The position numbers and the translations under genes are program-made. The notes under the pieces are model-generated. The model ran no database searches. It worked only from the letters and a program-made list of their open reading frames with translations, and had not been told where the DNA came from. A stretch of DNA of 61,823 bases, counting the filler, from Platydemus manokwari (taxonomy: Eukaryota): assembly GCA_037951405.1 (NCBI GenBank). It is 5 parts of 5 records of this genome, joined end to end, with 100 filler letters (N's around TTAATTAATTAA, not from the genome) between each part and the next. Parts side by side here need not be neighbours in the genome. Positions count along the whole stretch, not along the records: positions 1 to 11,756 come from JBBMOY010481109.1; 4 more parts are not named here. One strand, written 5' to 3'. Position 1 is the first letter of the stretch; each line of letters opens with the position of its first letter. This document shows positions 1-60,274 of this stretch, in pieces.

Positions 1-681
1 TGAGTTGTGGATGACGTTGTATTGTTTCATTTTCTGAAAATAAAGATTAAACATTTAAGGTTGATAACATATTGTATTCGATATAATGTATGTTATTTAA
101 ATATCATCATCATTGATTTTATAGTTTTAGATTTTTTATCTTTTATACTTTATGCTCTGGCTATTTGTCATCATGATACGTTTCGCTTAATGACAATAAG
201 AATGAAGACATAAATTGTTTAATAAGAATGAAGGCATATATTAGATTACACTGAAGCCATCGGTTATAATAATGAAAGCATACATTACATAAGGTTATAA
301 GTAATCACATTAAAGGTTATAAATAATCACAATAGCTAATCATTGTTGCTTAATCGATCTCAGTATTCGGCTCTTGTCATTTGTCTGTTGGCTTGTTGTC
401 CGGCTTGAGTTTGGCTCTTGCTTGTTCCAAATCTGCATTACTGAAATCGAGACATAATTCGTCTAAGTTGTCTTCACATGTATAGAGGATGGCCGTAATG
501 TGCCATCTCTTATTTTTGACGATTATGGTTTGCAGAATTGTCGGTGGCAGATAGGGTGCCTCTTAGCTGTGGGAAATCGGTGTTGATATCAATACTTATT
601 GGTTCAATTTGAGCACCTGTAGTTGGGCTTGGCACATACTTGCTCTTTTTCGACATAGGTTCGAAATTTCCTTCTTCTATT

Positions 682-1281
682 TCAACTTCCACTACTCCGG
701 CGTCTAGATCGATAGATTGATATTAGCTGAGTGGTGTTGACCGCTGGTATCCATTGCTCTTTTATAATGTTGTGGATCTCTTTTATTTGTTCCACTTGGT
801 TATTAGTTTCTAGTTCGTGTATTTTCTTTAATGGATTTGTCAGTAGTTTATGTACTACTCTTTTAAGTTTATATGGTTTTTTGTCATAAACCTTGTACTT
901 TGGTAATAGTTCCTCCGTTGATAAATCTTTGATTCCCATAATTTGGTAGGTAGGAAATGCTAAAGCCTTTATTATATCTGCCACTTGAAAGCCTATTAAG
1001 ACTTTTTGATCGATTATTTCCTTGATTTTTTCGTATTCTTTAGCTTGATCCCATTGATTGATTAATTTTTCTTCATCCAATTTGTGAACATCTTTACTGT
1101 AGTGTCTGACGTAGTTTCTGGGAGTTATTAATAAATTTATTAATAGTTGTCCGTTTCGATTGAGAATTGATATTGAGCAAATAGTAGTTATCGGAAATTT
1201 TTCCCTTATTATTTCCAAAGTGTCCACATAGAACGCCGCTTTGTGTAATGCATTGAGTTGTTCCTCTTCCGGCGTGATATT
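682..1281 (-). CDS. REX4/ISG20-like DEDDh 3'-5' exonuclease-fold protein with substituted catalytic residues
   Basis: About 200 uninterrupted codons: AFYVDTL...CSISILNRNGQLLINLLITPRNYVRHYSKDVHKLDEEKL...EKIKEIIDQKVLIGFQVADIIKAL...IKDLS...YKLKRVVHKLL. This is collinear with the REX4 pattern ALDCE..ARVSIVN..G..LYD.YVKP...V.DYRT.VSGI....L...V...L.GRILVGH...DL..L...IRDTS...SLK.L...LL. Confidence 0.75.
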   Translation of the reverse strand, partial: NITPEEEQLNALHKAAFYVDTLEIIREKFPITTICSISILNRNGQLLINLLITPRNYVRHYSKDVHKLDEEKLINQWDQAKEYEKIKEIIDQKVLIGFQVADIIKALAFPTYQIMGIKDLSTEELLPKYKVYDKKPYKLKRVVHKLLTNPLKKIHELETNNQVEQIKEIHNIIKEQWIPAVNTTQLISIYRSRRRSSGS

Positions 1282-1419
1282 TCAAGTGTTTTGAGAGGGA
1301 GTTCTTCAAATCCTCTAGTTATTGGATACGCTTTAGGTTCTTGTTCCTTTTTGATCATTTCTAGTACCACTGTTGTTGGTACAACTTGACTTAGAAGGGT
1401 TATTTGCTATACCCTTTCG

Positions 1420-1860
1420 TCATAATTTCCGAGTTCTAAGCTGGTGTGAGGTGAGAGATGAATTGGTTCTCCTACTCCAGGGATGTGGCCTTTTAGTGGT
1501 AGTTAAGATTAGCGTGCTATAGTTTTTGTGATTTTGCAGGGCTGGCATTAGTTGTATCAGTTTTTGTACGTTTGTATAGGTGAGTAGAGCAGCTTGAATG
1601 TGCCTACCACTTCGTCCGCTATATTTGCGTTTGTTTGGGAGTTGTAAATGATTTGCGAAGGACACATATTTGGTGCCTTTTCTTGCTTTTATCGCCATAT
1701 ACTCATGATATTGTAAGCCAACTGGTGCTTCGGTAGAGTAAGTATAGCAAGTTGCTTTACTGGTATAGGTGGACAGATATCTTGAAACTTCGTATCTTCT
1801 CATCTGTAATAAAAGATTTAAATTAGCAAAGCAGTAACTTGATTTCAAATTATGTTGATG
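1420..1860 (-). pseudogene. Uncharacterised element-encoded domain (weak resemblance to PC4/Sub1 ssDNA-binding fold)
   Basis: Open frame 1420-1911. KGTKYVSF...LTYTNVQKLIQLMPAL loosely resembles the PC4 pattern, by eye only. Confidence 0.3.
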
Positions 1861-2870
1861 CTGTATAATGAATAATAATATGATAAATATTAATATAATT
1901 TTTAGTAGCAACGTTAGTTGTCATAAAGTCGTCATTGAGGCGGCTATTAGCGCGATCATTACTTCTGCTCTATTTATCATCTCTAGTTTTTCTGCAGAGA
2001 GTGTAGAACTTAATAAATTTTGCTGGAATGGTATTATTTCATTATTTTCATCGTCTTAGTTTTTCTGGTTGTCCTGTGATAGTATTTGCCTTTGGTCTAT
2101 ATCAATTTTGTTGATTTGCTTAATGTGTGACCATTATTGTGGTGATATCTTTCCCATCATTAGTTTTAATTTTTTAGTTATTGTTGCTTTATTAGCTGTT
2201 GTATTTCTTCTTGTTATTATTCTTTTCTGTATCGTTGTTCGCCAATCACAATTTATTGCAGGTTTTATATAGTGTCTGGTTTTTTTGTGTATTTCGTGTG
2301 GTGTATCTCGCAAGGCACGTGTTATAATTATTATATATTTTTCACATGGGTCTCGGAGTAGATGCATTGTTTTAGGTTTATGTTCTAACATCATGTAATG
2401 CTTGACTTCCTTTTTATTTTCTCCTATCACCGTGGCTCTTATTATATCGTAAGTACTTTCATCTTTGATAATTGAGAGGCATCGTTTATCGGATTCTATT
2501 GTTATTCTTGTAAAATGTGGCATTAATTGTATTTCAACTATATCTCCATCTATTAATGTATGATTATTTTTGACATAGCACTATAGTTCCATTTTCACCG
2601 TAATGACCTGATTTGGTCGTAATCTTTCGAATACATGCTCCTTTGTTACTATTGCTGAATCAATAAGTTTATTTTTATAAGTATATAATTTTATTTTGTT
2701 ATAAAAGGGTATCTTTTCGGGTACGTGAATTGCTATCCAGAGTTCCGCCCAATTTAGACTCCAGTTATGTCTGATGAGAGGTGGTTTAGTGTAAGTGTGA
2801 CAATTGGCTATTGTTAACACATTCAGTAAGGTGATCATCATTAAAGTAAGTGATCTGAGTGAATATCTAT
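1860..2870 (-). pseudogene. Post-integrase putative type I membrane protein (signal peptide - beta-rich, possibly FN3-like ectodomain - TM)
   Basis: The IN tail RYSLRS runs directly into the hydrophobic LTLMMITLLNVLTIANC. It is followed by HVFERLRPNQVITVKM and LLRDPCEKYIIII (FN3-like L-x-P-x3-[YI]-x-[VI]), and the TM segment LLLKIILIFIILLFII at ~1867-1914. Confidence 0.5.
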
Positions 2871-2959
2871 GGCTGGTTGATCCTTGTTTGCTTGTTGATG
2901 TTCCGGTTTCAATATCATCTGCTCCTATTGTTCTCATCTGCTTTGGTTTATCTATCGTT

Positions 2960-3960
2960 TCCTTTTCGTATTCATTATATTTTTTACATTGCTCTGCGTG
3001 AACCCATATTAGATCAACTTTATTTTTTCCTGGTGGTCTTACCACTAATTTGGTATCCGTTACTTTTTTCTACTATATATGATCCCTTATATAGTCGTAT
3101 TAATTTTAGTGATATCCCCTTTTTACATGTTCGATTTTCTATCATAACTTTGTCTCCTACTTGAATTGAATGACTTTTTCGATTTTTGTCATAGTAGTTC
3201 TTTACTTGTTCTTGTCTATATTTAATATTGAGATTCGCTCTTTGCCAGGCTTCCGCGAGTCTTTCCTTCATTAATACCGCATAATCTTCAACGTCCATGT
3301 ATTGGGATATTTTTGGTTCTATTCCTATATCGACTGGGATATTACTTTCTCGAAGATACATAAAGTAAAAAAGTGTATACCCTGTCATTTCATGTGCTGT
3401 GTTTTGGTATGCAAAAAGGCATGATGGTATTTGTGCCGTATTTACGTATGATGGTATCATATTTAGTAAAGTTCCATTAAACCTTTCTACCAAAGCATCT
3501 GTTTGCGGATGGTATGGTGATGTATTGTGTTTCGTAATTTGCAGGTATTTATTGATTTCCATTAGAGTATTATTCATAAATTTTGTTCCTCTATCCGTGA
3601 GTACTTTTTTCGGTATTCCGTATCGAAATTTTATTTCTTCCACATATACTTTAGCTATTGTATTTGCTGTGTGAAGTAATCACAAAAGACTAAAATAAAT
3701 TTATTTCCGTTTCTTGATAATGGTAGTCGTCCTACTATATCCGTAGCTACCATGTCCATTGGTGTGGAGGGTTCTGGTATCGGTTTTAGTGGCACTCTAT
3801 GTTTTTTTCCCGTATTCTTTCTTGTTTTACATATTTGGCATGAGTTACACCATTTTCTCACATCCATTTTCATGGTTCGCCAGTGATATTTCTGTTTTAG
3901 TCTTGATAATGTTTTACGAGTATACAAATGTCCTCCTATAGTTCCGTCATGATATTAAAG
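2960..3960 (-). pseudogene. pol: Integrase (HHCC zinc finger, DDE core, GPY/F tail), disrupted
   Basis: GGHL..KTLSRLKQKYHWRTMKMDVRKWCNSCQIC; DIVGRLP...ILVFCDYFT; GIPKKVLTDRGTKF; YHPQTDALVERFNGTL; GDKVMI...KLIRLYKGSYIV. Confidence 0.95.
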
Positions 3961-4269
3961 TAGTAAAGTTTCCTTTAACTTTTCTGGTACTATTATTACA
4001 TGTTTTGTTCCATCGTCATATTTTAATACGTCTCCTTCGAATACAAATTTTGCTTTATTTTTTTTTAGAGATTTGGTTAGTGTCTTGGGAGGAATTCCCA
4101 GTGGTATTCTTATAATATTTTGCCAATTAGTTGGCATTTCTCCCATTCCAATAATAATTCCATATATTTCATCGTCTTCTTTCTGTAACCTGTTTATATC
4201 AATAATGTCTTGCATTTGGTGGCCTGTTTGCACTATATTTGCTTGTTCTAATTCATAGGCTTCTGGTAT

Positions 4270-4692
4270 TGCTCTTGATAAGGCATCTGCGTTTTCATTG
4301 TTTTTTCCATTTCTGTAACATATTTTTATGCTATATTGTTGTAGTTTTAGTGCCCATCGAATAAGTCTGGAGGCTGTATCTTTGTGTTGAAGTAACCATT
4401 GTAAAATTCAATAGTCCGTAAGTACGTGTATTTCTTGTCCGTCGATATATGGTCTGAACTTTTCAACTGCATATACTATGGCTAACGCTTCTAGTTCTAT
4501 TACGGCATAGTTCTTTTCGTGGGTTTTTAATCCTCTGTTTACATAGTCTATAGCGTATTCTTTTCCATTTTCATCAATTTGTCCTAGTACCACACCGCTA
4601 GCATAACTGCTTGCGTCAGTCATGATCAAGGACGGCTTATTGAGTACAGGGTATCTAAGAATTGGTTCCTCCGTGAGTTTGTTTTTAAGCAT
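4270..4692 (-). pseudogene. pol: RNase H domain of Pol
   Basis: PILRYP...IMTDASSYASGVVLGQ...YAVIELEALAIVYAVEKFRPYIDGQEIHVLTD, then RLIRWALKLQQY...NENADALSR (4270-4400). Confidence 0.94.
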
Positions 4693-4699
4693 GTTAAAG

Positions 4700-5460
4700 G
4701 CTTTTTCCTGTTCATTGTTCCAGACGAAAGGTTTATTTTTCCGCAGTAATATTGTAAGTGATGTGGAAATTGCTGAGCAATTTTTATTAATTTTCTATAG
4801 TAGTTTCCTGTATTTGTTTCGTAGTTTTTGGTTGTGGGAATTTTTCTACTTTTTCTACTTTTCATACGCATTTTGTCGGTTTGAGTTTTACATTGGCTGT
4901 TATCATTCGTTCAAAAACTTGAGCTAAGTCATCTAAGTGTTCTTCAAAGCTACTTGAAAATATTATTACATCGTCTATATATACCATGGTGTGTAGTAGT
5001 CCCAATAATATAATATACATTGCAAATTGGAAATTGGCTGGAGCTCCTTTTAGTCTGAAAGGCATTACCGTCCACTCAAGCAACTTCTTTCTATCAGTGA
5101 AGGCTGTGATTGGTATTGATTCCTCTTCCATTAGTATATTATTATATCCTGTTTGCAAATCAAGTGTTGAGAATATTTGGGCTCATCTTACTTTATTAAG
5201 CATATCTTCTATGAGAGGTAGTGGGAAGTTAATTGATTTTGTTTTTTCGTTTAACTTCCTATAATCAATGCATAGTTTCATTTTCCTTCATTATTTTACC
5301 ATTACTACTGTTGATCGCCAGGGGGATTGACTTAATCTAACTCTTCCATGATCTAATAGTTCTCGTTATTGTCGTTCTACTTCTTCTAGTGCTAGTGGTA
5401 TCATATAAGGTCGTTGGCATACTGGTTCTGGTTTTATAAGTTCTATTTTATGCTTTAGTA
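4700..5460 (-). pseudogene. pol: Reverse transcriptase domain of Pol (Gypsy type), disrupted
   Basis: SPW, FPLPLIEDML, FSTLDLQTGY, TAF, MPFRLKGAPANFQ, VYIDDVIIFS, KLKPTKC. Confidence 0.95.
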
Positions 5461-5540
5461 CTTTAAATTGTCCTAGATCATACTCATGTTTTGCAAATGC
5501 TTCTTGATATTTTTCTAGTAATATGGTAGGCATCGATTGT

Positions 5541-5921
5541 CTAATTGCATAAACTTAAGTAACATTTTAATTCTCTCAATATTGGTAGCTGAGACCCGTT
5601 GATTCCTATTATTTCAACATTGATTGGCTGGGTCTCTTGCAATTCTTTTTGATTAAGGATTCTCGAATTTATTATACTTGAATCAGCTCCTGTATCTATT
5701 AGGGTGTAGACACGATGTCGGTTAATTCTTATTTGCATAAGTCTCGAGTCTGCATTAATGGTTTGTACCATGCAGTGTCTGTCCATTATTCCTAATTGGT
5801 TCTGTCTTCTGATTGTTGAATCTCCAATGGTGAATTTAATCTGTTCATCTTCTAGAGCTTGAGTTACTTCTCCTAATTGTTGAATTTGGTATAAATTTTC
5901 TGTTGGTATTACGTTTATCAC
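5541..5921 (-). pseudogene. pol: Retropepsin (aspartic protease) domain of Pol
   Basis: IRINRHRVYTLIDTGADSSIINS...IIGING, i.e. the D-T-G catalytic motif and a flap-like IGING. Confidence 0.9.
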
Positions 5922-6179
5922 TGTATCATTTAATATATTTGGTTCGTTTTGATTTGAGTATGAGTTTTTGTATTGGTATTAAACTTATCTCCGTATCATT
6001 TAGCGCGTTTGGTTCTTTGTAGTTGATCATCTGTAAATAACCTTGTTGTATTAGTGCTGGATTAGTGTTGTATTAGTGCTTTGAACTTCCCTTTTTTGCG
6101 GATTGCTTAACTTGAATTGTTCCAGCTTTTACTTCTGGTAAGAAGCTTCTATAGTCTGATGTGTGAGATTGAGATATTC

Positions 6180-7580
6180 GCTCACTGTATGGACTTTCGT
6201 GATAAGTATTATTGTTATCATTATAAGATGGGTTAAGTCCTCAAAGGATATTTGGTTGTTCTCGTAGAAAGACTTGTACAAATTGTAGTTCTTCTCTTGT
6301 TTTTCCATGAACTATGTGGTGAGCCATTATTAGAGCTATTAATGGGTTGCATTCTGCAGCTTGTGGTTTCATTCGTGAGTCTAAAAGTATGTGTGTGATA
6401 TGTTGCATATATTTCTTTTCTTTATTTACTATTACCGCTAGTTCTCTAGTGTATTCCGCTTCTGGTGTTACTGTAACGTCTATGGCTTCACACTTGTAAG
6501 TATACCATCCTTTTCCACTTATTCTTCCATATGTTCCTTGTTCCCTTATTACGGGTGTAATAAGGTCAGGATTTATCAGAGCTATTACCATTCTGTTTCT
6601 TATCGTTTATTTGTCTCTTCGACAGCCATTGTGTATTGTTTCTTGATATATTTCAAGTAGCTATAATTTGAGATTATGATATAAGTAGTCTATTTTATTA
6701 TTCAGATAACCCAGCCAGCTTAATATCTATTTTATGAATAGGAGTAGTCTTGTGAGCTTCCCTTTCACTTATATAAATTCCTTTATAATTGGTTTGGTAC
6801 ATCAGGTTTTCCTTTTAGTATTCTTATGGTTTCGGTTTCCGCAGTCGATACCAATATGGTTGGTAGTTGTTTTTCTTTGAAATTCTTCACTTCCGTTTTT
6901 CTCTGTAATTTTTCTTTTGTTATTTTCCTCGCTACTAAATGTTTTTCTTCTACAGAAGTTCCATTTATCGGTGTGAAAGAAACTCGTTTCAAAAATGATA
7001 AAGGGCAGTGATTATTTTTTATCATATTGTACATAAAAGTGGCTCCATCTGTTTGGCATGATGAGAATGCTGAATAACAAGAAGGATATTGTGCCATTGT
7101 TCCCGTAGTCAAGTCAAAAGTAGCTACATATGTCCGTCACTCTATTTGGTAGTCTTTTATGTCAACTACATGTGATATATGTTCTCCTCTACTATATTTT
7201 GGACGACCTATACATGTTCCATCCGGTTTGATGTGATCTCCTTTCGTTATTGTTTCAGCCATTATCGATCCTACTTTTACTATTGATGTTAATTCATTAT
7301 CTATTTGTAGTTTTTCTATGTCAAATGCTTCATTGCAATTTTCTGGTGATATTTTAATGATTCTGGGTATTACCTTAGTATATAGAATTTGTGTTCTGCT
7401 GAACGCTCCGCAGTAGTACTCGAAGACAGCTCGAGTGACTCGGCATTCCTTAACGGTTGTCCTATAGTAGTCTTTTCCCTGATAAACGTAGTAATTCTCT
7501 TTTGGTCCTTTTGTAACTCTATATGGATGTACCGTTGGGCAGTCAATAAGATCTACTAAAGATCTAACCATAAACCCTTC
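6180..7580 (-). pseudogene. Chuvirus-like / class III (gB-type) fusion glycoprotein (env-like), frameshifted and partly deleted
   Basis: Collinear motifs of the chuvirus G family: SLVDLIDCP, VYQ..YYRTTVKECRVTRAVFEYYCG, KISPENCNEAF, PDGTCIG, CYSAFSSCQTDGATFMY..C, (6600-6780 by hand) YLNNKIDYLYHNLKL*LLEIYQETIHNGCRRDK*TIRNRMVIALINPD, and GTYGRISGKGWYTYKCEAIDV...RELAV...YMQHITHIL...ECNP. A hydrophobic remnant LTHLIMITIILIT lies at ~6200-6240. Confidence 0.85.
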
Positions 7581-8870
7581 ATTTAGTCCTCCTAGAGTTC
7601 CTATTCCAGTAACTGGGTTTGGTGGTTTTTGTATAAAATTTTCCCAGCCTAATTCGAGGTAAATATTTCTTTATTTCTTTATTGAGTTCTTCATATACTT
7701 TAAGTGATACCTTAAGTAATTTGGTATTTTTAGGTTCCACTCCCCTTGCTAACTTTAATAAAGTTTCTTTTATACTGCTTTTAACATATGGCATTGTTAT
7801 GTCTGCTATATTTCTTAATATTCTACTTTTTAATTGAGTTCCTACTTTTGGGTTTATCAATTCCGTTGGTGGTTGAATTTTAATTATTTGTGAATGTTGT
7901 GGTCTACCTCATTTTTGTTGCCTTCTATCGCTTGGTTCCTATGGCTCATTTCTTTGATTTATTTCATTTTCCTCAGTTGGATCGTAATTTCTTGGTAGTT
8001 CTTAGAGTAGATTATCAGTTTCTATTATTAATACGTCTGGTGTATTTAGTTCTGTCGTTGGTGGTACAGTTTCATGTGGATAGTTTCATCTATCTCCACC
8101 TGAGATGATTGAAGTTGAGTTTCGTCTTCTTGAGAAGTTATTCCTGAATTTGCTATCGGCATTGTGGCTCTTTGCCATTTTGCGTTAGTAGTAGGGATAT
8201 TAATTACTTGTACTGATGTGGCAGACATCCTATATTTACTAGATATTCGTCATCATCTATCGGTATTCCCCATGCGGCTATAACGAATGGGTCTCGTGGT
8301 CGCTTTTGCTCTATTATTAATGCTCTCAAGCACTCTAAGTATTTTGTCTTGATCTGTTATTCTTTGAGTTAATTCCTTTTCGACATTAGATGGTAGTTGT
8401 AATAGCTCTCTTTTATCTGCTTGTGTCATTTCAACTGTGACTAGTATGTTTTCTGTGTCTAGTGCTTGCATGTTTTCTGTATAATTATTAATGTCTTTAG
8501 TTGGATCCATTTTTGGATCAAAACTCGTAGGCATGCTTATCGTATCATCATGTTTTTGTAAGGTGTGCTAACCTATCTCTGTATTTTCGACGACTCCGGT
8601 CGATTGGATATCTTGTATGTAATAGGCATATGAGACCTTATTACAAAGTGTCGTTTTGAAAGTATCGGCGGCTGCAGTCGTGGTAAGAAATATATCGTTA
8701 TTTTCAGTTAAAGAGTATTATTTTTCTATGTTTTCACTTATTATTTCCTCCTGTTGTCTTATTTTACTATATAAAGTTGTTGAGAGTATTACATTACAAT
8801 GTTCCTGTTGTGTATGTAGTCGCTCTAGTCTTATTCGTTCATCGTGTACTTGTTGCTCAAGTTGCATAAG
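7579..8870 (-). pseudogene. Uncharacterised polyprotein segment between Gag and the glycoprotein
   Basis: ORF fragments 8253-8534, 8046-8228 and 7579-7860 lie on the element strand with the same compositional bias. No motif was recognised. Confidence 0.45.
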
Positions 8871-8874
8871 TTTA

Positions 8875-9603
8875 TCATATTTTTCCTGAGCATGATCGTC
8901 CTATATGTCCAAATTGGTTGCATCTAAAACATGTTATTTGTCCATTTAGATTTACATTATTCCTTTTATCATTATTTTCTATGGTTGTTTTACCACGGCA
9001 AATTATCGCGACATGTCCCATTTTTCCACATTTATCACATTTTAGATTAGTGCATTTACACTGACTTGTCGGATGGTTTGTTCGTCCACACTTATTACAT
9101 GGTATCGGTTTCCCATTTATGCCTTTCATAGATCTACAATCATTTGTTCGATGTCCAGTACGTAGGCATCCTTGGCATTTTATGTTAGATTTAGTATTAT
9201 TTTCATTTTTCGGTCCCTTAATGTTATTATTAGCATTTTTATTATTATTTTGCCACTTATTCATCCTATTCTCCTGAACTGCAAGTGCAAACTCGTTATT
9301 CCCCATACTTACTTCTGCTATTCGTGCCTGTTGAACTAATTGTTCAAATTCATCTCCTATATGTAAACTAAGTGTGTTTTTCATGGTTTGTGGTAATCCA
9401 TCCCAAAATTGATCTTTTACCATTTCTTCCTTGTCAGGATCCCAATTTACTCTAGGTCCGAAAACTCTTTCCGCTAATATTGTAAGTTCCCCTATATGTT
9501 CCACTGGTAGTTGCTTACGGTTTTTGAATTATTGTCTATACATTCTTACTATGTAAGGTGGAAGAAGCGCTTCACCGCAGGCTTGTTTGAAATTATTCCA
9601 CAC
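8875..9603 (-). pseudogene. gag: Gag (capsid C-terminal part + nucleocapsid with four CCHC zinc knuckles), 5'-truncated
   Basis: Reads VWNNFKQACGEALLPP...RQ*FKNRKQLPVEHIGELTILAERVF...DQFWDGLP (retrotransposon gag pattern). Knuckles: CQGCLRTGHRTNDC, CNKCGRTNHPTSQC, CDKCGKMGHVAIIC, CFRCNQFGHIGRSC. Confidence 0.92.
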
Positions 9604-9720
9604 TTATATATTAAAATAGATAATAGAATACACTCAAAATTATTGACAATAATAGATTTATTTAACTGATTTTTATGAGCTGACAAATAACCAGGCTTGT
9701 GGGGGTTTTCTCAGTTTGTG

Positions 9721-10080
9721 CTTCATTAACGAAGTTACTGACTCTATATGGATAGAGTGTATATTTTTTATGGATAGTCTCTTAGGTTTCCCGGTAAGAG
9801 CCCTAAAGTTGCTAGATTTTTGGAGGTTAGTCCTACGTGGAACCGTAACCTCTTGGACCGAATTTATTTAAGACTTTAGATTTTATGAGATTTTACCTCT
9901 AGTTGAACTGGGTTCAGTCTAGAGTAGTTTTTTAATCGGATTTGATTAGATTATTAACTTTTTAAATTTAAGACACCGGAACAACTTAATAGAGTTGTTG
10001 GTGGAGAATTATTGGTAGGAAATAAAGTAATATAAATCAAATAACTTTAAACACCAGAACAACTTAATTGGGTCGTTAGA
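9721..10080 (-). promoter_or_regulatory. Structured leader upstream of gag (cluster of hairpins)
   Basis: Inverted repeats ACTCTAT/ATAGAGT (9741-9758), CTCTTA/TAAGAG (9779-9800), GAGGTTA/TAACCTC (9823-9852), CTCTAG-TTGAAC/GTTCAG-CTAGAG (9897-9924), TAATC/GATTA and ACAACT/AGTTGT. Confidence 0.4.
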
Positions 10081-23332: not shown

Positions 23333-24611
23333 AATAATAATAATATTATTAAAATTTTATTATAAAACTATAAATAATCATTAATATAAATCATAAATAT
23401 AATTAAGTGAATTAATAATTTAATCAATATCTGAGTCAGCAAAATAGATATAAATGATTAAAAAACATAATAATAATTAACAAATTAAATTTTAATTACG
23501 TAATTGTAAATATTAATATAAAAATAATATTTTAGCATTAAATAATAAAAATAAAAACATTCTACTGACGTACCATTGTTGTTATTATTTTCCATTATAA
23601 AAAATAATACTGAGAACTTGATCAGATCATCTCACACACATCGATAAATACAATGATAGTCTATTTAAATCTAATTCTATACTTTGTGAGTTTATTGTTG
23701 AAATAATGTGTTTGATATGTTTGCATTAAAAGCCTTGCTTAAACAAACCAATAAATGCTTCTATTTATTTATAAGCGCATCGATTATGAATATCTTAACA
23801 TTTTTTTTCGTTCATTACAACCCTGTCAACCAATGATCGATGTGAATTGAATATTATAATTTGTAACGTTATTATATAAAATATGGAAACAAATATAATC
23901 GAACTATAGAACCGGCAATTTCCAGACATGAAAGAGAAAATAATTCACCATTGTTATAAGATTGAATACAATAAAACAAAATTTAATTCTGTCATGAAAT
24001 AATTCTCTTTGTCAGACTCGCTGTAGAGGAAATCTGATAAATATTTTCAAGAAATATTTTTATTCGATTTAATTTTCATGACAAACAAGATCTTCAAATT
24101 TTGAGGTGAAAATTTTTATATTATTTTGCAATAAATATTTTTATTTGATCGAAAATTTTATTTATATATTATTTTTAATATCATCTTATCAATAGTATTT
24201 TATATCTATTATTATATTTATCTTGATTATTAAAGTGAATATAATATAACTTTTTATAATATAATAATAATATAATTATAATATAATAATAAGTCTGATG
24301 GATTGATTGTGTTTTATTAATAATATTGTTAGAGACATTCTAAATAGCAATATAAATAACTATAATTATAATATTATAATAAATTATTGTATAATAATGA
24401 GAGGAATCAATGATAGAAATAATTGGAACAAATTAATAACAGTACTGTCATTTAAATGATAATAATCAGGTGAGTAATAATAATGATAATAATAATCTAA
24501 TAAAATTTACTTTATAAGTATTAACAACAATAATAATAAATTATTTTTATATAATTTTCGTGATTATTGTTGTTTTTACATGAAACAATAAAAGTATTTG
24601 GCTTTGCGTAT

Positions 24612-25143
24612 TGTTGGGTATATCACAAATCAATCAAAAGAGTCACGAGAACTAAGGAAAGAACCCTAAAATTGTCAACACACGCAAACCCAATAAACAT
24701 AAGTGCCATCAACCAATCAGACTCGTTCTCATGTTAATCCAGATTTAGAAGCTAAGAATCGACAAGCACATACCTACACACGACAGCAAGCTCAACTATT
24801 CGCCAATGACATGTGAGGTATACGAACAAATTCAGTAAATGGAAAACGAAGATTCTCGACATCAAGCAGACACACCAGACAGGTCTATAAAGAAGGTTGA
24901 GTACCTTGGATTTCTGCCATTCATTTTTGGTGGGTAACTTAAGTACTTAGTTTATGTGTGATTTTAGTTATCAGTCTTTTTGATTACTCTTTATTCTTTT
25001 TTTGACTTTCGGGCGCTGGTCCCGTCTTGAGTGATTTACTTTGTGAATTGTGACAAGATTTGCTGTTGTTGTTGTTAAGACTGAGTGTATCATGTTAGTT
25101 AATACCAATTTTCAGATCAAAATTGTTTATTGATAACCCAACA
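24612..25143 (+). mobile_element. Solo LTR (copy 1)
   Basis: Termini TGTTGGGTATATCA...TGATAACCCAACA (TG..CA, inverted), perfect 4-bp TSD GTAT, internal TATAAA. Homologous to 49913-50466. Confidence 0.88.
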
Positions 25144-25719: not shown

Positions 25720-26090
25720 CACTCAGCCATCATTAATCCTAACTTCACTAATCCGAAAACTTTACAATACGACAAAAAGATATTTATTTCGTCAATTTTC
25801 GAACGTTTCCAGACAAATTTGATTCATTAATCCGAAACTTCATGATCCGCAATCGGAAAGCTCTTTTTTGAATTAAATTTTTAATAATTTTTAAAATTTT
25901 CGGATTAATGTTGTTTAAATATTATCTTGTATACAATTTTAATTTATTTAAATTAGATATCCATATGGATAGAAAAGGAACAGAAATTACAATACATCAA
26001 AGGCAAAAATTTGTGCAATAAAGGAGTCAAAGAATATGTCGCTGAGTGAATTGTCTCAAATTATCAGAATAGAATTAAATCTAGACCTGT
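25720..26090 (+). mobile_element. Tigger/pogo 5' fragment (same family as 48343-49514)
   Basis: Collinear with 48343-48700, including the start MDRKGTEITIHQRQKF. Confidence 0.75.
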
Positions 26091-27735: not shown

Positions 27736-28525
27736 GGCTTAAGTTAAAAAAGAGTCCTAAAATAAAATTTTTAATTTGTGGAGTGTATTGCAAAAATCTA
27801 TATAGTTTATTTAATTAAATTCTTTTAAAACATTTTGAATTTTTTATAAAAGTACCTGAGAAGAATTTTATTTCTTTATAAAACAAATATTATCACACAT
27901 GAGTTTTAAAATATATTGAAAATCATTTATTTGAAAAACCGGTCAAAGATGGTCAAGAAGAAATTAATTGAAAATTAGCGAGGACACTCTTTTTTAACAT
28001 TAGAAGCAAATGGAACGATATCTAATATTTTTAGAATTATTTTATAAAAAAGTGACATGTTAATCACTGAGGAGTACCAGAAACTTGGTACTTGTGTTTA
28101 TCTCAAAATAAGTATATTAATATTTATTTGATAGATTGAATACATAAATTAAAAACCTTTCAATACTGTAATGAAATGAAGTTTTTATCCAAATCAAATA
28201 AATCGAATTGGCACAGAAAATTAATTGGAGACCGAAATATCGTCGTAGAATTGAGAAGGCTTATTTTGGAGAAAGAATTGCTTCATATTTCTAGTCTCAT
28301 CGACTCTAAAAGCATTAAACTCAAGTTAATTGGAAATTATTTATTTAAAATGATGCTTTTATTTAATAGCACGTTCGTGAAACAATTATCCATAATATAT
28401 AAGGATTGTTAGAGTTGTTTCTTCCTTTTTTATCTAAAATAGAATTTTAAGCAAAAATTTCTATATTAAATTATGGAGGAAAGTACATCATATTAAAATT
28501 GGGTTAAAGGATTTTTTTCTTTACT
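27736..28525 (+). mobile_element. Merlin-like MITE family copy
   Basis: Starts GGCTTAAGTTAAAAAAGAGTCC and shares long blocks (e.g. GAAAATTAGCGAGGAC...TTTTAACATTAGAA; TTATCCATAATATATAAGGATTGTTAG) with 31300-32480, 41330-41830 and 58829-59766. Confidence 0.7.
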
Positions 28526-31299: not shown

Positions 31300-32480
31300 A
31301 TTTTATGGAGGTTGATTTATTTACATAATTTAGTTTTATGATATCGAACAAAGACAAAACAGATTTGTGAAACAAAGTCTCTATTCTAAACACAATAACT
31401 CAACTTGATTTTTTGAGTTGTTAAATTTTTTAATTAATTATTGATCGACTTTGTAAATTCCAGAGATGTTTAATAATCTTGAATCGAAAATTCAAAAATT
31501 CAAATGTTTTGAAAGAATATTATTATATAAACTTTACAGATTTTTGCAATGCACTCAACAAATTCAAATTTTTATTTTAGAGGTCCTTTTCTTAATTTTA
31601 ATCGGGACTCACACAGAAAAAGTATAAGCAAAATGATTTCCGAAAGCAAACGAACAACGAACAAATATTAACAATTCTTATTAAAATAAAATTAAGAACT
31701 TAAAATTATTTATCAAGGTACAAAATTTGTAAGTTTTGAATAAATACATATCAATGAATAAGTAGCTTGGCATATAAAAATAATTGGAAGCAGAAACATC
31801 GTCGCAGAAATTGACGAGGCCTACTTTGGAGGAGCTAAATATAATAACTGATGTCGAAGACATTGTATTTGAGCTTTTGAATAATTGCTTCCTATTTCTA
31901 GTTTGCAACCGAAGCGCATCAACTCTAAAAGCAATAAATACGAGTTAATCAGAAATTGTATATTTAAAATGATACTTTTATGTAATTGTATGTTTGTGAA
32001 CCCATTATCCATAATATATAAGGATTGTTAGTTGTTTTTTTCCTTTTTTTATCTAAAATTGAATTTTAAACAAAAACTTCATTAAATTATGATTAAAACT
32101 AAATTTTAATATTAAATTATGATGGAAAATACATTAAATTAAAATTGGGTCAAAGGGGCCTTTTTCTAAACTTTAGTCAATTGGGCTCCCAAAATCAAAT
32201 TTTAAATTTGTTGAATGTATTATAAAAATCTATATAGTTTATTTAATGATATTCTTTAAAAACATCTTGAATTTTTTATTTAAGTACTTAAAAAGAATTT
32301 TAATTGTTTGAAATCAAATATTAAATACACTGGATGTTAACAATCTCCTAAAATTTGATATTTTGAAAAACTTAAAAAAGTAGGTCGAATTGCAATTTAT
32401 TGAAAATTAGCGAGGACCCCTTTTTAACATTAGAAACAATATGAGAGATATTCTCAATTTTTACAATTATTTTACAAAAA
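31300..32480. mobile_element. Cluster of rearranged pieces of the same MITE family
   Basis: A reverse-oriented end lies at ~31300-31603, a right half ends CTTTAGTC at 32178, and a left half follows at 32184-32480. Confidence 0.6.
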
Positions 32481-33439: not shown

Positions 33440-34740
33440 GACATAACTCAGACATAGTCTCACGACCTTCACCCCTAAGTGGTGGAGCAAATATCTCAGG
33501 TTTCGCACTGGATTCATCTTCGTGTCATCAGTGGTTCTTAACCAAGTTTATCGAACATTTATTTATCCTCAGAGTATGTCAACTCAACGTCCGAGATATT
33601 TTCTTGGTGGTATTTTTCGATTATGCTTCTTGGGCTTGATGGAATTGCCATTGGTTATAGCATGCCTGGATGTTGGACTTGATACATTGAAATGGGATTG
33701 TCTCCATCGATATTTTTTGAATCCAAGTTTTCTCAGTATTACATCATTTTTATGTCAATATTCCGAGTAATCTGACCACATAAGTGAATAGTTCCACTGT
33801 CCGTCCTGTTCTGGGTTTTTAATCCCTTTTGCATATTGGCATTAATTGGGATTGGTTATCAGACTTTGTTTATCTATCAGGAATTTCACATCGATTAGAA
33901 AGATTGAACGGGTACGGTTATTAACTACTTGCATTCTAGCTCATAGTCTAAAACCCTTAATTAGGCAAGTTTTTCAACATGGACATCATTATCTGTGTGG
34001 TAATTGATAAATTTGGTCAATATATCCATAATTTTCGAGTGTCGGTGCAGAACGTGAGAATTAAACACACCGAGCTTGGTAAAGAGATGTGTTTGTGACT
34101 CTAGCTTATATAGGTATTTTCTCAATTGTTGGTCTATCATATACTTCCTGTTCAGTGTTGGCAAGGTATCAGAGCGTGCTTTATTCAGAAAAATGAGTAC
34201 CGTTATTGTTAGGCTTCCGTTGAATACCAGTTTTTTCATATGAGCGAGACAGAAGGCATTGCTTTTATTTATCTTCAGCAACGTTTTCTTAGGCTCATTT
34301 TGGTTGATAGATTTTAGTGATGCATTGATACAAGAGTTTCGGAAGTTCTTTGATCTTTTATGGCTAATCAGAGCTTCTCTTGTTATTTTGCCTTCATATT
34401 TGTAGACATTGTTGAGTGACCTGAATTCCAATTTATTCATCGATTATTTGGAAGCTGATTGCCGTGTATAGTTTATCATTGGCATCTTTGATGCCTTCCT
34501 TATCTTTCCCCGCTATCATTGAGTCCTTTTCGTGCCCTTTTTTTCTGAATTTTGCCAGTTTATAGAATCCATCATTGTTGGTAATTGATTCGAGGATTTC
34601 TGCACTGATTCTCTGGGAATGTTTGGGATGATATTGAGCTGACTGATGATGGACAAATAGTGCATTGACGATTGATTGTATTGTATATTCTGAGGTAATA
34701 CTTCGGAGATCACACCCTCCATTTTATTTAATTGCATATA
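33440..34740 (-). mobile_element. Non-LTR retrotransposon 3' fragment, restriction-like endonuclease class (NeSL/R2/R4-like)
   Basis: FLNKARSDTLPT...ESQTHLF...HRHSKIMDIL (KAR.LPT / CCHC / RHN region), then IFLIDVKF and YVV.LLG...NDVILRKLGF of the RLE endonuclease. Confidence 0.75.
33461..33537 (-). ncRNA. Degenerate type I hammerhead ribozyme-like motif
   Basis: Minus strand reads CCA-CUGAUGA-CAC(13 nt)GUG-C-GAAA-CCU...AGGU-C-GUG. It has the full core, a perfect stem III and a GUC cleavage triplet, but stems I and II are each one nucleotide out of register. Confidence 0.45.
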
Positions 34741-41329: not shown

Positions 41330-41830
41330 TTATCATTTTGTGAAAGATGATTTATTTACATAATTCAGTTGATATCTCACATTTTATGATGACGAATTGA
41401 AATAGAATTACATAGAATTATTAAACCAAGTCCCTATTTATTTTCTAATCACAACACTTTTATACGAATATTAGAATTTAAATTTTTTAATTATAAATCG
41501 AGTTAGTAAGCCATTAACGTGTTTTATAATCTAATATTACTTAGTTTATAAAATAATCGTAAAAATTTGGAGAATCTCACAATTTCCTTCAAACGATAAT
41601 TTTCAATAAATTGCAATTTGACCGATTTTAACTCGTTTTTCAAATAATCCAATTTTAGGAAAATTTAAAGGTCTAATGTATTTAATATTTGATTTCAAAC
41701 AATTAATATTCGTCTGAAGTACTTAAATAAAAAATTCAAAAGGTTTTCAAATATTATAATTAAATCAACTACATATATTTTTGCAATACCTTCAACAAAT
41801 TAAAATTTTTGACCTTTCTTAACTTTAGCT
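41330..41830 (-). mobile_element. Merlin-like MITE family partial copy
   Basis: Ends GACCTTTCTTAACTTTAGCT and shows reverse-complement homology to 27736-28050. Confidence 0.6.
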
Positions 41831-48342: not shown

Positions 48343-49514
48343 CAATCAACTCTCATTAACCCAAACTTTAATAATCCGGAAACTTTATAATCCGAAAAAA
48401 ATTATTTGTTTCGTCAATTTTCGAATCTTTCCAGACAAATTTAATTCATTAATTCAAAACTTTATGATCAGGGAGCTCTTTTTTGAATTAACTTTTTAAT
48501 AATTTTTAAAAGTTTTGGATTAATGTTGTTTAAATATTAAGCTTGTTTACAATTTTAATTTATTTAAATTAAATATTCATATGGCTAGAAAAAGAACAGA
48601 AATTACAATTCATCAAAAGGAAAAAATTTGTGCAATTAAGGAGTCAAAGAAAATGTCGCTGAGTGAATTGTCTGAAGTTATCAGAAGAGAATTAAACCTG
48701 GACGAGAACGATTTCATCAAGTGAAAGAAATGGCATAAGGCAATCTAAAATTAAAATTATCATAGCTTTATGTTCAAATACTAGTGGATCAAATAAAATT
48801 ACACCGTTTGCTATTGGACAAGAAACTAAGATGTTTTAAAAGATTTCATGTTGTAAGATACTGCAATTACCATGATACTGTAATTCGAAAGGATTGATGG
48901 CCACCGATTAGTTTAATTGTTTCCTGCTCCATCTCGATGATGGACTGAGAAAATACAAAAAGAAATTTTATCTACTTCGTGATAATGCTCCAAGTCATAA
49001 CTTGAAGAAATATTTTCAGAACATTGTAGTTACAATGCTTCCGAAGAACTCAACTGCTCATCGTCAACCCATGGATGCAGGTATAATAAAAAATTAAAGC
49101 ATTATTACAGAAAAAGTTAGTAGTTGATTACACTAACTCGCTTGACCAAACAAAACCATTTGTTGTTAATCTTAAGAAAGCCACATTGATACTCCATGAA
49201 GCTTGGGAAGATATGAAAGAAAAAACCATCAAAAATTGTTTCAAAAAGGTTGCAATTATTCCAGTACTTCATGGATTTTATGCTGAAAAAACTTGTCATC
49301 AGATCCCGATCTTGAGAGACACAGGAATGAGCTTGACCAAACAATTGTTAAAAAGGATATGTTCCAAACAGAAGAAGTCATTGATGATGTTGAAATCATT
49401 GAACTGTCAAGAAGAATACACTGTTGAAGATGTTGTACTTAGTTCTGAAAATGGTCAGGTCGATGATAGTTACAACATAAATCCAAACAATTTATTCCAT
49501 GCAATTGAAATTGT
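48343..49514 (+). mobile_element. Tigger/pogo transposon, degraded, cut by gap
   Basis: MARKRTEITIHQKEKIC; LCSNTSGSNKITPFAIG; LLRDNAPSH...MLPKNSTAHRQPMDAGII; ILHEAWEDMKEKTIKNCFKK. Confidence 0.88.
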
Positions 49515-49614
49515 NNNNNNNNNNNNNNNNNNNNNNNNNNNNNNNNNNNNNNNNNNNNTTAATTAATTAANNNNNNNNNNNNNNNNNNNNNNNNNNNNNN
49601 NNNNNNNNNNNNNN
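49515..49614. other. Artificial contig spacer N44-TTAATTAATTAA-N44
   Basis: Identical 100-bp linker. Confidence 0.98.
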
Positions 49615-49912
49615 ATTATTGTACCCAATTATATATATGAATGAAGAATTGACAAAAATATTAATCAAAGAAGTTCACCTATCAAAAAATCGAGGAGCTG
49701 AACAACAATGGTAATTAGAATTCTCTCGCATAATACCAACATAATATCATATAATAACTCACCAAGTAATTAAACGGACTGATCATAACTGAGCTAAACA
49801 TTTAGACATTACAAAGGAGAGTCAATATTTAAATTTACATGCTTAAAATAATAACGAAATAGATTTATTTATATGATCATTTAAACAATGATTAATGTTT
49901 CCCTTTACATAG

Positions 49913-50466
49913 TGTTGGGTATATCACAATTCAATCAATAAGGTCACAAGAACCAAGGAAAGAACCCCAAGAAGCGTCAATACGCACAGACCCGATAAAC
50001 ACCCGTGCCATCGACCAATCAGATTCATTCTAGTGTTAATCCATATTTAGAAGCTAAAATTCTACAAGCACATATCTACAAATGACAGCAAGCTCAAATA
50101 TCCGCCAGTGGCACGAGAGATACGAAGATAATCTCAAATAAATCGATCCACAAATAAATTCAGCGAATGGAAAACGAATATCCATGACATCAAGCAGACA
50201 CACTCGATAGATCTATAAAAGAGGTCGAATTTCTTGAATATCTGCCAGTCTTTTTTGTCGGTAACTTGAGTGCTTAGCTTATGTGTGATTTTAGTAATGT
50301 CTTTTTGATTATTTTTCATTCTGTTTTAACTTTTGAGCGCTGATACCGTCTTGAGTGATTTAGTTTGAGAACTGTGTAAAGATCTGCTGTTGTTGTTGAG
50401 ACTTTGAGTGTAATATTTTAGTTAACACAAAATTTCAAATCTAAATTGTTGATTGATAATCCAAAA
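49913..50466 (+). mobile_element. Solo LTR (copy 2)
   Basis: TGTTGGGTATATCA...TGATAATCCAAAA with perfect 4-bp TSD ATAG. Collinear with 24612-25143. Confidence 0.86.
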
Positions 50467-57600: not shown

Positions 57601-60274
57601 TATTACAAGCACCTTCGAGCTTAAAGTTGAAGGCCATTCGTTGTTATTCATTAATTTGTACTTTGTGCTAATTTTATGTGAATTTTCAATATTTTTCAAG
57701 CACTAAATGTGGCATACAATTCCTATTATTTATTGAATATAGCTCTACACACACACACACACACATATCTACAATGAAAAAATCGTTCCATTAACAATCT
57801 AATAATGAAAATTAGTGTATCCAATCTATTGAAAATAATTCATTTCCTTCATTAAATTTTTATCAAATTGAACAATCATATAACATTATATTTTATAAAA
57901 CTCCTTTTATTCCATCATCATATATAAAAGTTAAAAATACTTAAATGAAACTTTTATTGAAATTTTTTTTCGAAATTAAGAAATGTGTAAGCATTTTTAT
58001 AACAATAAATAAATAAAATATAAAATCTGATATAAAAAAAATAAACCAACACTTAGAGGAGTTGGTAGATTATCACTTTCCTTTGTAAGACTCTCTCGTC
58101 TTAGTCTGCTTATTTCCTCTTGTGGATTTAATCTTGTAACAAGGGGTTTCTAGAAAACATTCATTTTAATAAAGAAATGAACTTGATGTTTTCAATTTTT
58201 AAAATGTCAAATATTACTTCCGTGGAGATTACATTACATAATTACATTTATGGAATGAGAAAGTTATTAAAAGTTTCTAGAAAACATCACTGTCAAATAA
58301 TATCCACTGATTTATTAATCAATAAAGAAATTAACTCACAGTTGGCTCATGAAAGCTTTCCGATTCGAAAGTCTGACTTTGCTTGCGCAATTTCTGAATT
58401 TCTGCATGGGGATTGATTTTCGTATAATTTGTTCCCTGTCAAAAAATTGATGATTGTCACATTAATGATTTAATAAAATTCTATTGTTTATCTTTACCAC
58501 TTGGTGAGGTGCATCTTCTGCATATGTTCTATTTGCCAATAATGTGAGTTCCTAAAATTTTTAATTGAACATTTAGATATTATCTGCAGAAATTATTCGA
58601 AATAATTCTTACAGAATGAATAAAATTAGTGTTTACGGTTAAGATAAATTTAAAAAATATTTATTATTAGAACATGGTACAAACTCCTCAACTCAAACCA
58701 AATATAGAAATATATCAATTATCCTCATACAAATATAACATAACACGCATGATGTATTCTTCGATTGTGATGAAGATAAAATAATAACTCTATATGGATT
58801 GGTTCAAATCTAGTACAATATTTCCCAATGCTTAAGTTAAGGAAAAGGGTTCTCTGACCCAATTTTAGAGTAATGACTTTTCGTAAGTTATTTGATATTA
58901 AAATTTATTTGTAATCATATTTTAATGAAAATTTTACATAGAGTTCAACTTTTGATTAATAACCAAAAATCAACTCTAAAAATCAAAACCATGTATTCGA
59001 TGCCCGCTACTATATTTGGCACTTTCAAAACATTTCTCGTCAATTTTTACAACGATATTTAGGCCTGTAATTATATTTCTACGCCAAGATATTTCTTCAT
59101 TGGCGAGGAATCTACAAATTTTGTACTTCAATAAATAAGTTTAAATTGTTGGTTTTATTTTTATAAAAATTGTTAATATTTTTTGTTGTAGGTTTGCTTA
59201 TGGATGTCATATTTGTGTGAGCCCCGTGCACCAAAAATACCTTATTCAGAATTTCGAAAAGGGACAAGGCTGAATTGTTGAACCCTATTTGAATTCCGAA
59301 ACTTCTTATATATTTGTGGCATCTTTACCTATACGATTTATTTGATTTGGATTAAACCCTTATTTCATTACAACATCGACAAGTTTGGGATCTATGTACT
59401 CAATCTATTAAATAGATATTAATATACTTATTTTGAGAGAAAACACAAGTACCTCAACACAAGTAACTCTAAAAATCTTAGATATCATTCCTATTGCTTC
59501 TAATGTTAAAAAAAGGGGATCTCGCTAATTTTCAATTAATTGCACTTTGACCTACTTTGGCCCGTTTTTTAAATAATTAATTTTTAGGGGATTTTAAAAA
59601 TACTGTGTATATATTATTTGATTCTAAATAACTAAAATTTTACTCAAGTGCTTAAATAAAAAATTCAAAATGTTATTAAAGAATTTAATTAAATAATCTA
59701 TATAGATTTTTGCAATACAACCCACAATTTGAAAATTTTATTTCAGGACCCTTTTTAACTTTAGCCTTTTCCAAATTTGCAAATGACTTGTATTTGCTAT
59801 GACCATTTGGATCATTATTCTAGTACTAATTCCGCATTGAAATAATGACAAATATTAAGTCAATGGAAACCGTAATAATAAATATAACAGAGACATTTTA
59901 TAATAAATGAATAATATTTTAATTTGTAATATTAATGAATTATTTCGAATTAGTTAACTTTATAACACGTAAATAAATATGTTTGTATGTTGTCAATGAT
60001 AAATCAATATATTGTAATGTTAAATGAAAACGTAATTAATTCGATGAACACTATAAGAATAGATTAATTGTTAAAACATTGCTAGTTATCGTAAAATATA
60101 AATCGACAAATGAAAAATATAAATTCATTTTATAGAACTGTTTATGAGAACATTTAGAAAGTTTATTGATGTCTCATAATTTGATACTCAAACATAAATA
60201 TTAACCTTTTGACGTTCTTCAATGGCTCTGGCAGGAGTATTATTTTCACTTTGAACTCTTGCAGCACTTTCATA
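54687..60274 (-). CDS. DBNL: Abp1/drebrin-like actin-binding adaptor, 3' part with five repeats and two SH3 domains (exons 60206-60274?, 58498-58551, 58340-58435, 58051-58149, 56831-56920, 56695-56781, 56552-56644, 56442-56507, 55909-56394, 54997-55075, 54876-54944, 54687-54823)
   Basis: [14 protein letters not shown] matches the Abp1/DBNL post-ADF-H motif. SH3 #1 is [17 protein letters not shown]...GWW...[10 protein letters not shown], and SH3 #2 is AQFSYNAQDGDELSF...DDGWWEG...GLFPSNYV*. The GT-AG junctions are phase-consistent. The ADF-H domain was not found in the window. Confidence 0.8.
58829..59766 (-). mobile_element. Full-length Merlin-like MITE in DBNL intron
   Basis: TIRs TGCTTAAGTTAAGGAAAAGGGTTC / GGACCCTTTTTAACTTTAGCC and 8-bp TSD TTTCCCAA/TTTTCCAA (7/8 match). 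GG termini plus an 8-bp TSD fit Merlin. Confidence 0.72.

Follow-up and report, generated by a model that had tools for sequence, protein, structure and literature searches.

Envelope genes placed between gag and pol have already been described in Ty3/gypsy-type elements of flatworms. In the planarian element Burro, reported in 2019, env lies in frame between gag and pol and matches mononegavirus fusion glycoproteins, a placement which Arkhipova and Yushenova (2019) term the first such case (PMC6431247). More recently, Chary and Hayashi (eLife 2026) described GAG-ENV-POL Ty3/gypsy elements whose ENV is of the gB type, from the phyla Nematoda, Bryozoa and Platyhelminthes, and chuvirus-like G was also found beside gypsy pol (PMC13524379). 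The Schmidtea elements Smed_errantivirus_1-6, listed there with 45, 215, 3, 8, 1 and 1 copies, respectively, carry an HSV/gB-type ENV denoted 'C1a'. The non-canonical ERVs of nematodes (Sacco et al. 2022, cited in PMC13524379) combine a Metavirus pol with a flipped env/pol order. A chuvirus-type glycoprotein is also present inside an LTR retroelement of mosquitoes, Anakin (Dezordi et al. 2020, PMC7642597), which belongs to BEL/Pao; the envelope-like genes of Roo, Tas and Cer-7, all BEL/Pao, are described in the same source as located downstream of the polyprotein.

The window considered here, i.e., the whole analysed stretch of DNA of 61,823 nucleotides from Platydemus manokwari, contains a decayed retroelement in its first 9.6 kb. 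The element lies on the minus strand, its coding strand is A-rich, and its GC content is about 34%, compared to 21-30% in the flank. In the Pfam scan, the coding order is zinc knuckles, PF24664 (twice), aspartic protease, reverse transcriptase (RT), RNase H and integrase (Table 1). This is a decayed Ty3/Gypsy copy whose glycoprotein segment, here called G, was probably inherited within the published flatworm GAG-ENV-POL errantivirus lineage and not captured anew; the placement in the lineage rests on a by-eye comparison of G rows. The gag-env-pol layout, in which the original prediction had seen an unusual topology, had already been published for Burro in 2019 (PMC6431247) and for errantiviruses (PMC13524379).

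Table 1. Features of the retroelement, in coding order (positions along the window).
Feature	Position	Strand	Evidence or remark
Gag: C-terminal part of the capsid, followed by four zinc knuckles of the CCHC type	8875..9600	-	zf-CCHC E 9.8e-9; 5' end not defined
Hydrophilic spacer, ~400-440 codons, frameshift-broken	7671..8874	-	coiled-coil-like start by eye
G, Monjiviricetes/chuvirus, HSV gB-type class III glycoprotein ectodomain homologue	6241..7670	-	PF24664
G-to-protease linker, differing among copies	5781..6240	-	marginal hydrophobic run and local duplication
Aspartic protease (DTG)	5541..5780	-	RVP E 8.2e-5, above cut-off; LIDTG at 5702
Reverse transcriptase (YIDD), Ty3/Gypsy type	4862..5330	-	RVT_1 E 5.3e-18
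RNase H	4330..4794	-	RT_RNaseH_2 E 3e-33
Integrase (H2C2 finger, core, GPY-like motif)	2970..3954	-	Integrase_H2C2 E 1.1e-15
Post-integrase extension	1864..2862	-	signal-peptide-like segment, predicted beta-rich region, TM helix
DEDDh / RNase T-like 3'-5' exonuclease homologue, end of coding region	682..1281	-	ESM Atlas

The affiliation of the element is indicated by several features of Ty3/Gypsy (Metaviridae), namely the PR-RT-RH-IN order, a Ty3-like RT and CCHC knuckles upstream in Gag, where four CX2CX4HX4C motifs occur (9177, 9099, 9039 and 8931). In the PDB, the RT was most similar to 4ol8 RT/RNase H (E 8.7e-31) and the Ty3-G Gag-Pol 7q5b (E 4.9e-30), followed by weaker matches to foamy virus (3e-9) and HIV-2 (7e-4), in a comparison without any BEL/Pao RT. 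This Ty3-like RT agrees with the earlier assignment of the host element to Gypsy and not to BEL/Pao, and together with the position of G upstream of the protease it distinguishes the element from Anakin. The integrase core matched rve_3 below the cut-off (E 4.3e-5), with a GSY motif at 3085, and the Pfam scan of the spacer gave nothing above the cut-off. From Gag to the end of the exonuclease, the element measures 8.9 kb, with a coding span of about 3,000 codons.

Stops or frameshifts break every gene of the element, and this copy is decayed, non-coding and makes nothing functional. The 'intact' errantivirus set of Chary and Hayashi is defined by uninterrupted ORFs (PMC13524379), and the window copy, being broken by many stops and frameshifts, lies outside that set. 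No LTR pair was found in 1-12000, and no PBS was found; since the window starts at the 3' end of the element, one LTR may lie outside it. Likewise, none of Smed_errantivirus_1-6 has a listed LTR in the supplement rows of PMC13524379.

The identity of G is supported by two natural ORFs that match PF24664 (Monjiviricetes fusion glycoprotein) above the gathering score, at E 5.9e-10 and 5.8e-8, which is far beyond chance. When single frames were read with X at stops, profile positions 38-226 of 653 were matched at E 1.8e-12 and positions 308-432 at E 7.8e-16, and the Pfam-supported stretch of G extends over approximately 7562-6334. The chuvirus/Monjiviricetes-type class III homologue that had been proposed from motifs is thereby borne out by a family profile. 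The order of the proposed motifs was also recovered: SL.D...C at 7562, C.V..YCG at 7445, DG.C.G at 7223, Y.N.K..Y at 6708, NPD at 6573, G..KC..V.V at 6516, THIL at 6396 and ECNP at 6354. The motif given as 'RC' is present in this series, but its actual residues are CRR, at 6624.

G is distributed among three reading frames, in which in-frame stops occur, and a search of all three minus frames of 5700-6400 gave no match to profile positions 433-653 at E<=1. The AlphaFold single-sequence model of G had a mean pLDDT of 34.9 and was unusable for recognising the five-domain, trimeric class III fold of gB-type ENV, and PDB sequence searches with pieces of G gave nothing under E=1. The class III assignment of G therefore depends on the Pfam family and on the structures analysed for its relatives in the literature (PMC13524379).

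G is a resident gene of the element. As predicted, it lies 3' of the zinc knuckles (9177-8931) and 5' of the protease motif at 5702. Both G and pol have an A content of 0.37-0.44 and a third-position A content of 0.41-0.56, compared to A=0.37/T=0.36 in the flank. One public sequencing run (X1) contains the stretch, and its contigs were mapped to 1-11700; this run may be the window's own source and cannot serve as independent material, nor does contig depth in it equal copy number. All 30 bins of 1-11700 were covered, and 1623 of the 1928 contigs were less than 99% alike, indicating that other copies of the element exist. On 5500-8000, 180 contigs were mapped, none of those listed spanning the entire stretch. 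A 653-nt contig connects the 3' part of G (6197-6324) to the protease-proximal part (5762-5931), a contig joint connects 7650 to 7962 on the upstream side of G, and a contig of 1830 nt runs collinearly within G. G is assigned to the element because its base bias equals that of pol and because other contigs of this one run join it to both neighbours.

The same data bear on the idea that a separate endogenous viral glycoprotein fragment was inserted by chance into a gag-pol element. Solo chuvirus G insertions are reported from mosquito genomes (PMC7642597), and the junctions on both sides of G are variable, which would fit such an event. However, G shares its strand and composition with pol, its two ends have no word of 9 nt or longer in common, and neither poly-A nor a target-site duplication is present there. 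Absence of G from sister copies had been named as the sign of an independent insertion; the diverged sister contigs carry G joined to both sides. Published intact elements, moreover, carry env at the same position (PMC13524379). A chance insertion is therefore hardly credible and can be regarded as largely refuted, in line with the earlier view of G as part of the element.

The closest known relatives of G, as judged by eye, are those of Schmidtea. Compared by eye and not by tool, G and the ENV row of Smed_errantivirus_4 are identical at 68 of 156 ungapped positions, while among the pairs of Smed ENVs listed, 8 of 9 share 32-38% and one shares 64% (PMC13524379). In this comparison, 7 of the 8 cysteines of the Smed_4 row are in register with G, and the eighth falls in the broken stretch near 6800; the C1a cysteine pattern, also compared by eye, is that of domains I-II in Platyhelminthes. 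A TNYKG motif, located at 6793 in a third frame, is common to G and the Smed rows. The nematode ERVs belong to another host phylum, and to the eye the nematode ENV row resembles G much less than the Schmidtea rows do. Similarities to Smed_errantivirus_1-6 extend to the Ty3/gypsy pol, to env between gag and pol, to the collinear G and, apparently, to the coding span, and the window copy differs in being broken and in having no signal peptide or TM around G.

This resemblance speaks against the view that this Gypsy lineage captured a chuvirus G independently and recently; an independent capture had been deduced in the original prediction. Such a capture would be compatible with the definition of PF24664 on Monjiviricetes glycoproteins and with the reported lack of monophyly of GAG-ENV-POL elements across phyla (PMC13524379). 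It is highly improbable in view of the close by-eye match to a resident Schmidtea ENV, cysteine pattern included, and of base and codon bias of G that is fully the element's; the match to Smed_errantivirus_4 points to inheritance. In addition, scans of viral contigs with G were empty, which weighs little since these were single-sequence scans. The protein homologue searches are likewise weak evidence: no relative was found for N-terminal G among longer proteins (156 candidates), for G within polyproteins of 1673-5326 aa (659 candidates) or for C-terminal G at near length (14 candidates). The sole metagenome match, L001 2030-3421, was rejected as chance, as it lies in a bacterial flagellar hook-type gene (by eye) on a contig of 69% GC.

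In the published elements, the ectodomain of gB-type ENV lies between a signal peptide and a TM, or between a pair of TMs; the text of PMC13524379 reports these anchors for gB-type ENV in general, without a statement for each Smed element. The surroundings of G were scanned for hydropathy in 19-residue windows with a threshold of >=1.4 in all frames. Between the knuckles and G, over 1.3 kb upstream of G, no window reached this threshold in any frame, and downstream of G only a marginal hydrophobic run occurs (6236-6180, hydropathy 1.59, where a clear TM reaches 2.93). The same scan does detect signal-like and TM segments after the integrase, ahead of the DEDDh-like exonuclease, and these are the only such segments of the element. 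In the window copy, which is broken, the scan thus gave no signal peptide or convincing TM helix around G. The original prediction had drawn attention to a membrane-translocated domain inside the Gag-Pol precursor; the question of topology is real, but such a domain is not borne out in this copy, as no signal peptide or convincing TM flanks G.

The linker between G and the protease contains a local duplication (5896-5948 / 5966-6018, 40 of 53 positions identical). In one diverged sister contig, 195 nt correspond to 265 nt of the window; the 70 nt by which it is shorter match the spacing of the duplication, and so this contig has no extra room in the linker. At 7516-7935 and 5584-5919 deep contigs are present, and no long insertion appears among the 6 of 68 loose ends listed; these contigs do not match approximately 5920-6240, where low contig cover was not taken as absence.

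These observations allow a less probable alternative within the same lineage, in which G would be anchor-less throughout the subfamily, as a cytosolic structural or vestigial domain, and the post-integrase protein would be the real membrane protein. This reading draws on the lack of hydrophobic windows around G in a scan that detects the post-integrase segments, on the absence of long insertions or extra room in sister contigs, and on the retention of the cysteines and family motifs of G. However, the stretch from profile position 432 to the protease measures about 185 codons, not far from the 221 profile positions that are missing, so that by room alone a diverged C-terminus of G could be accommodated, and approximately 5920-6240 lies outside the matches of the deep contigs. 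Conserved cysteines in a protein indicate passage through the ER, and those of G argue for such passage. The general report of anchors in gB-type ENV (PMC13524379) also speaks against an anchor-less subfamily.

The post-integrase extension may provide the element with a second membrane protein. After the integrase, one frame is mostly open for about 2.4 kb (3069-682, minus strand), with a signal-peptide-like segment at 2862-2806 (hydropathy 1.57) and a strong TM helix at 1920-1864 (2.93). The region between these two segments had no Pfam or PDB sequence match, and ESM Atlas gave no usable match for 2850-2584. AlphaFold predicted beta strands only in this domain (pLDDT 36.7), and Foldseek found nothing at E<=0.001; its best hits, PLAT/C2 beta-sandwiches at E 0.029, were not taken as evidence. 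An FN3-like reading, based on a resemblance, received no support from Pfam and was rejected. At 1281-682, the top ESM Atlas matches are RNase_T (score 0.94, 191 of 256 features common), accompanied by a weak match to ISG20L2 (E 0.17 over 149 residues); the Pfam scan of this segment was without a match.

A DEDD-family exonuclease 3' of pol is also known from Juno/Vesta of bdelloid rotifers (Rodriguez et al. 2017, PMC5408684). In those elements, it is described as an RNase D-like DEDDy enzyme in a separate ORF3, whereas that of the window is RNase T/DEDDh-like, follows a TM segment and apparently continues the frame of the integrase extension. The membrane domain and exonuclease are not described for Smed_errantivirus_1-6 in the text of PMC13524379, and among the papers covered by the literature search there was no description of a post-integrase module in planarian elements. 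The listed span of Smed_4 minus two 3-kb extensions is 8.9 kb (PMC13524379), equal to that of the window element, which may hint at the same extension in Smed_4.

If these features are combined with an anchor-less G, a repurposed fusogen and a replaced envelope could be imagined. In such a Gypsy subfamily, the polyprotein would hold a conserved class III G stripped of its signal and anchor, cytosolic between Gag and protease, while behind the integrase an unrelated membrane protein of type I, fused together with a DEDDh exonuclease, would provide membrane contact and RNA trimming. This composite reading is rather unlikely.

Another candidate is a reduced or deleted Burro-like giant element, which is improbable. 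Like Burro/GYPSM1, the window element has several CCHC knuckles in Gag, env between gag and protease (in frame before the protease in Burro), and a MATH domain nearby (PMC6431247). The MATH/TRAF ORF (11684-11241, minus; Pfam E 3.2e-14) shares its strand with gag, is located 1.7 kb upstream of it and has deep and variable contig cover, and a Burro-like element of Dugesia tigrina has MATH as an upstream accessory ORF (PMC6431247). This ORF may be accessory, as in Burro, or may belong to the numerous TRAF copies of the host. On the other side, no BCL2, BIR, ankyrin, SUMO-like or dUTPase match was detected in the ORFs and frames scanned, the coding span of about 3,000 codons is much shorter than the 4,873-5,140 aa of the giant elements, MATH occurs only upstream and not inside, and the region between gag and MATH shows a drop in contig depth of about tenfold (10141-10920).

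Other observations concern the flank and the remainder of the window. A 101-nt repeat (11131-11231 / 11274-11374) lies inside the MATH/TRAF region. Exons of an HMG-CoA lyase-like host gene (44466-42424, minus; HMGL-like Pfam) and a host exon with a C-terminal SH3 domain (56433-55867, minus; Pfam) were recognised; these genes do not point to a particular phylum. The similarity of G to the Smed rows, the AT-rich flank and the TRAF/MATH ORF suggest a planarian-type flatworm as host. Four ORF remnants (13878-14210, 16177-16461, 33961-34723 and 49090-49566) resemble DNA-transposon fragments by eye, and none of the four had a Pfam match at E 0.01. Dispersed repeats of 72-91% identity in both orientations (27740-28510, 31488-32480, 41545-41817 and 58831-59763), together with further ones (24597-25074 / 49898-50398 and 25774-26086 / 48396-48703), are probably old non-autonomous transposon copies. 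The four 100-base N-runs (11757, 23233, 33018 and 49515), each with a TTAATTAATTAA spacer, are an artefact and not a biological repeat.

Overall, inheritance of G within the flatworm errantivirus lineage is the preferred explanation; the absence of the published gB-type anchors, the undetected profile positions and the lack of an LTR pair or PBS count against it. Under this explanation, the active ancestor would have encoded one polyprotein of about 3,000 codons, in the order Gag-spacer-G-PR-RT-RH-IN-membrane domain-exonuclease, which its own protease would have cut. It would have replicated by reverse transcription and integration, as a normal LTR retrotransposon. An envelope acquired long ago would have been retained as G, most probably with the role of a fusion protein in spread between cells, although confidence in this working role is lower than in lineage and origin. 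Cell-to-cell spread has been proposed for errantiviruses by authors who call the entry mechanism unknown. The missing anchors may reflect decay or divergence in the subfamily, a weaker part of this explanation.

As it stands, the window element is one more decayed, flatworm-type example of a published class and changes little. The GAG-ENV-POL literature, as represented by the consulted text of PMC13524379 and PMC6431247, is silent on how a glycoprotein within a Gag-Pol precursor reaches the membrane. If intact sister elements proved to have no anchors around G and to carry a post-integrase membrane protein, G would not serve as the envelope in some of the elements counted as enveloped and retrovirus-like, and there would be a new accessory module to explain.
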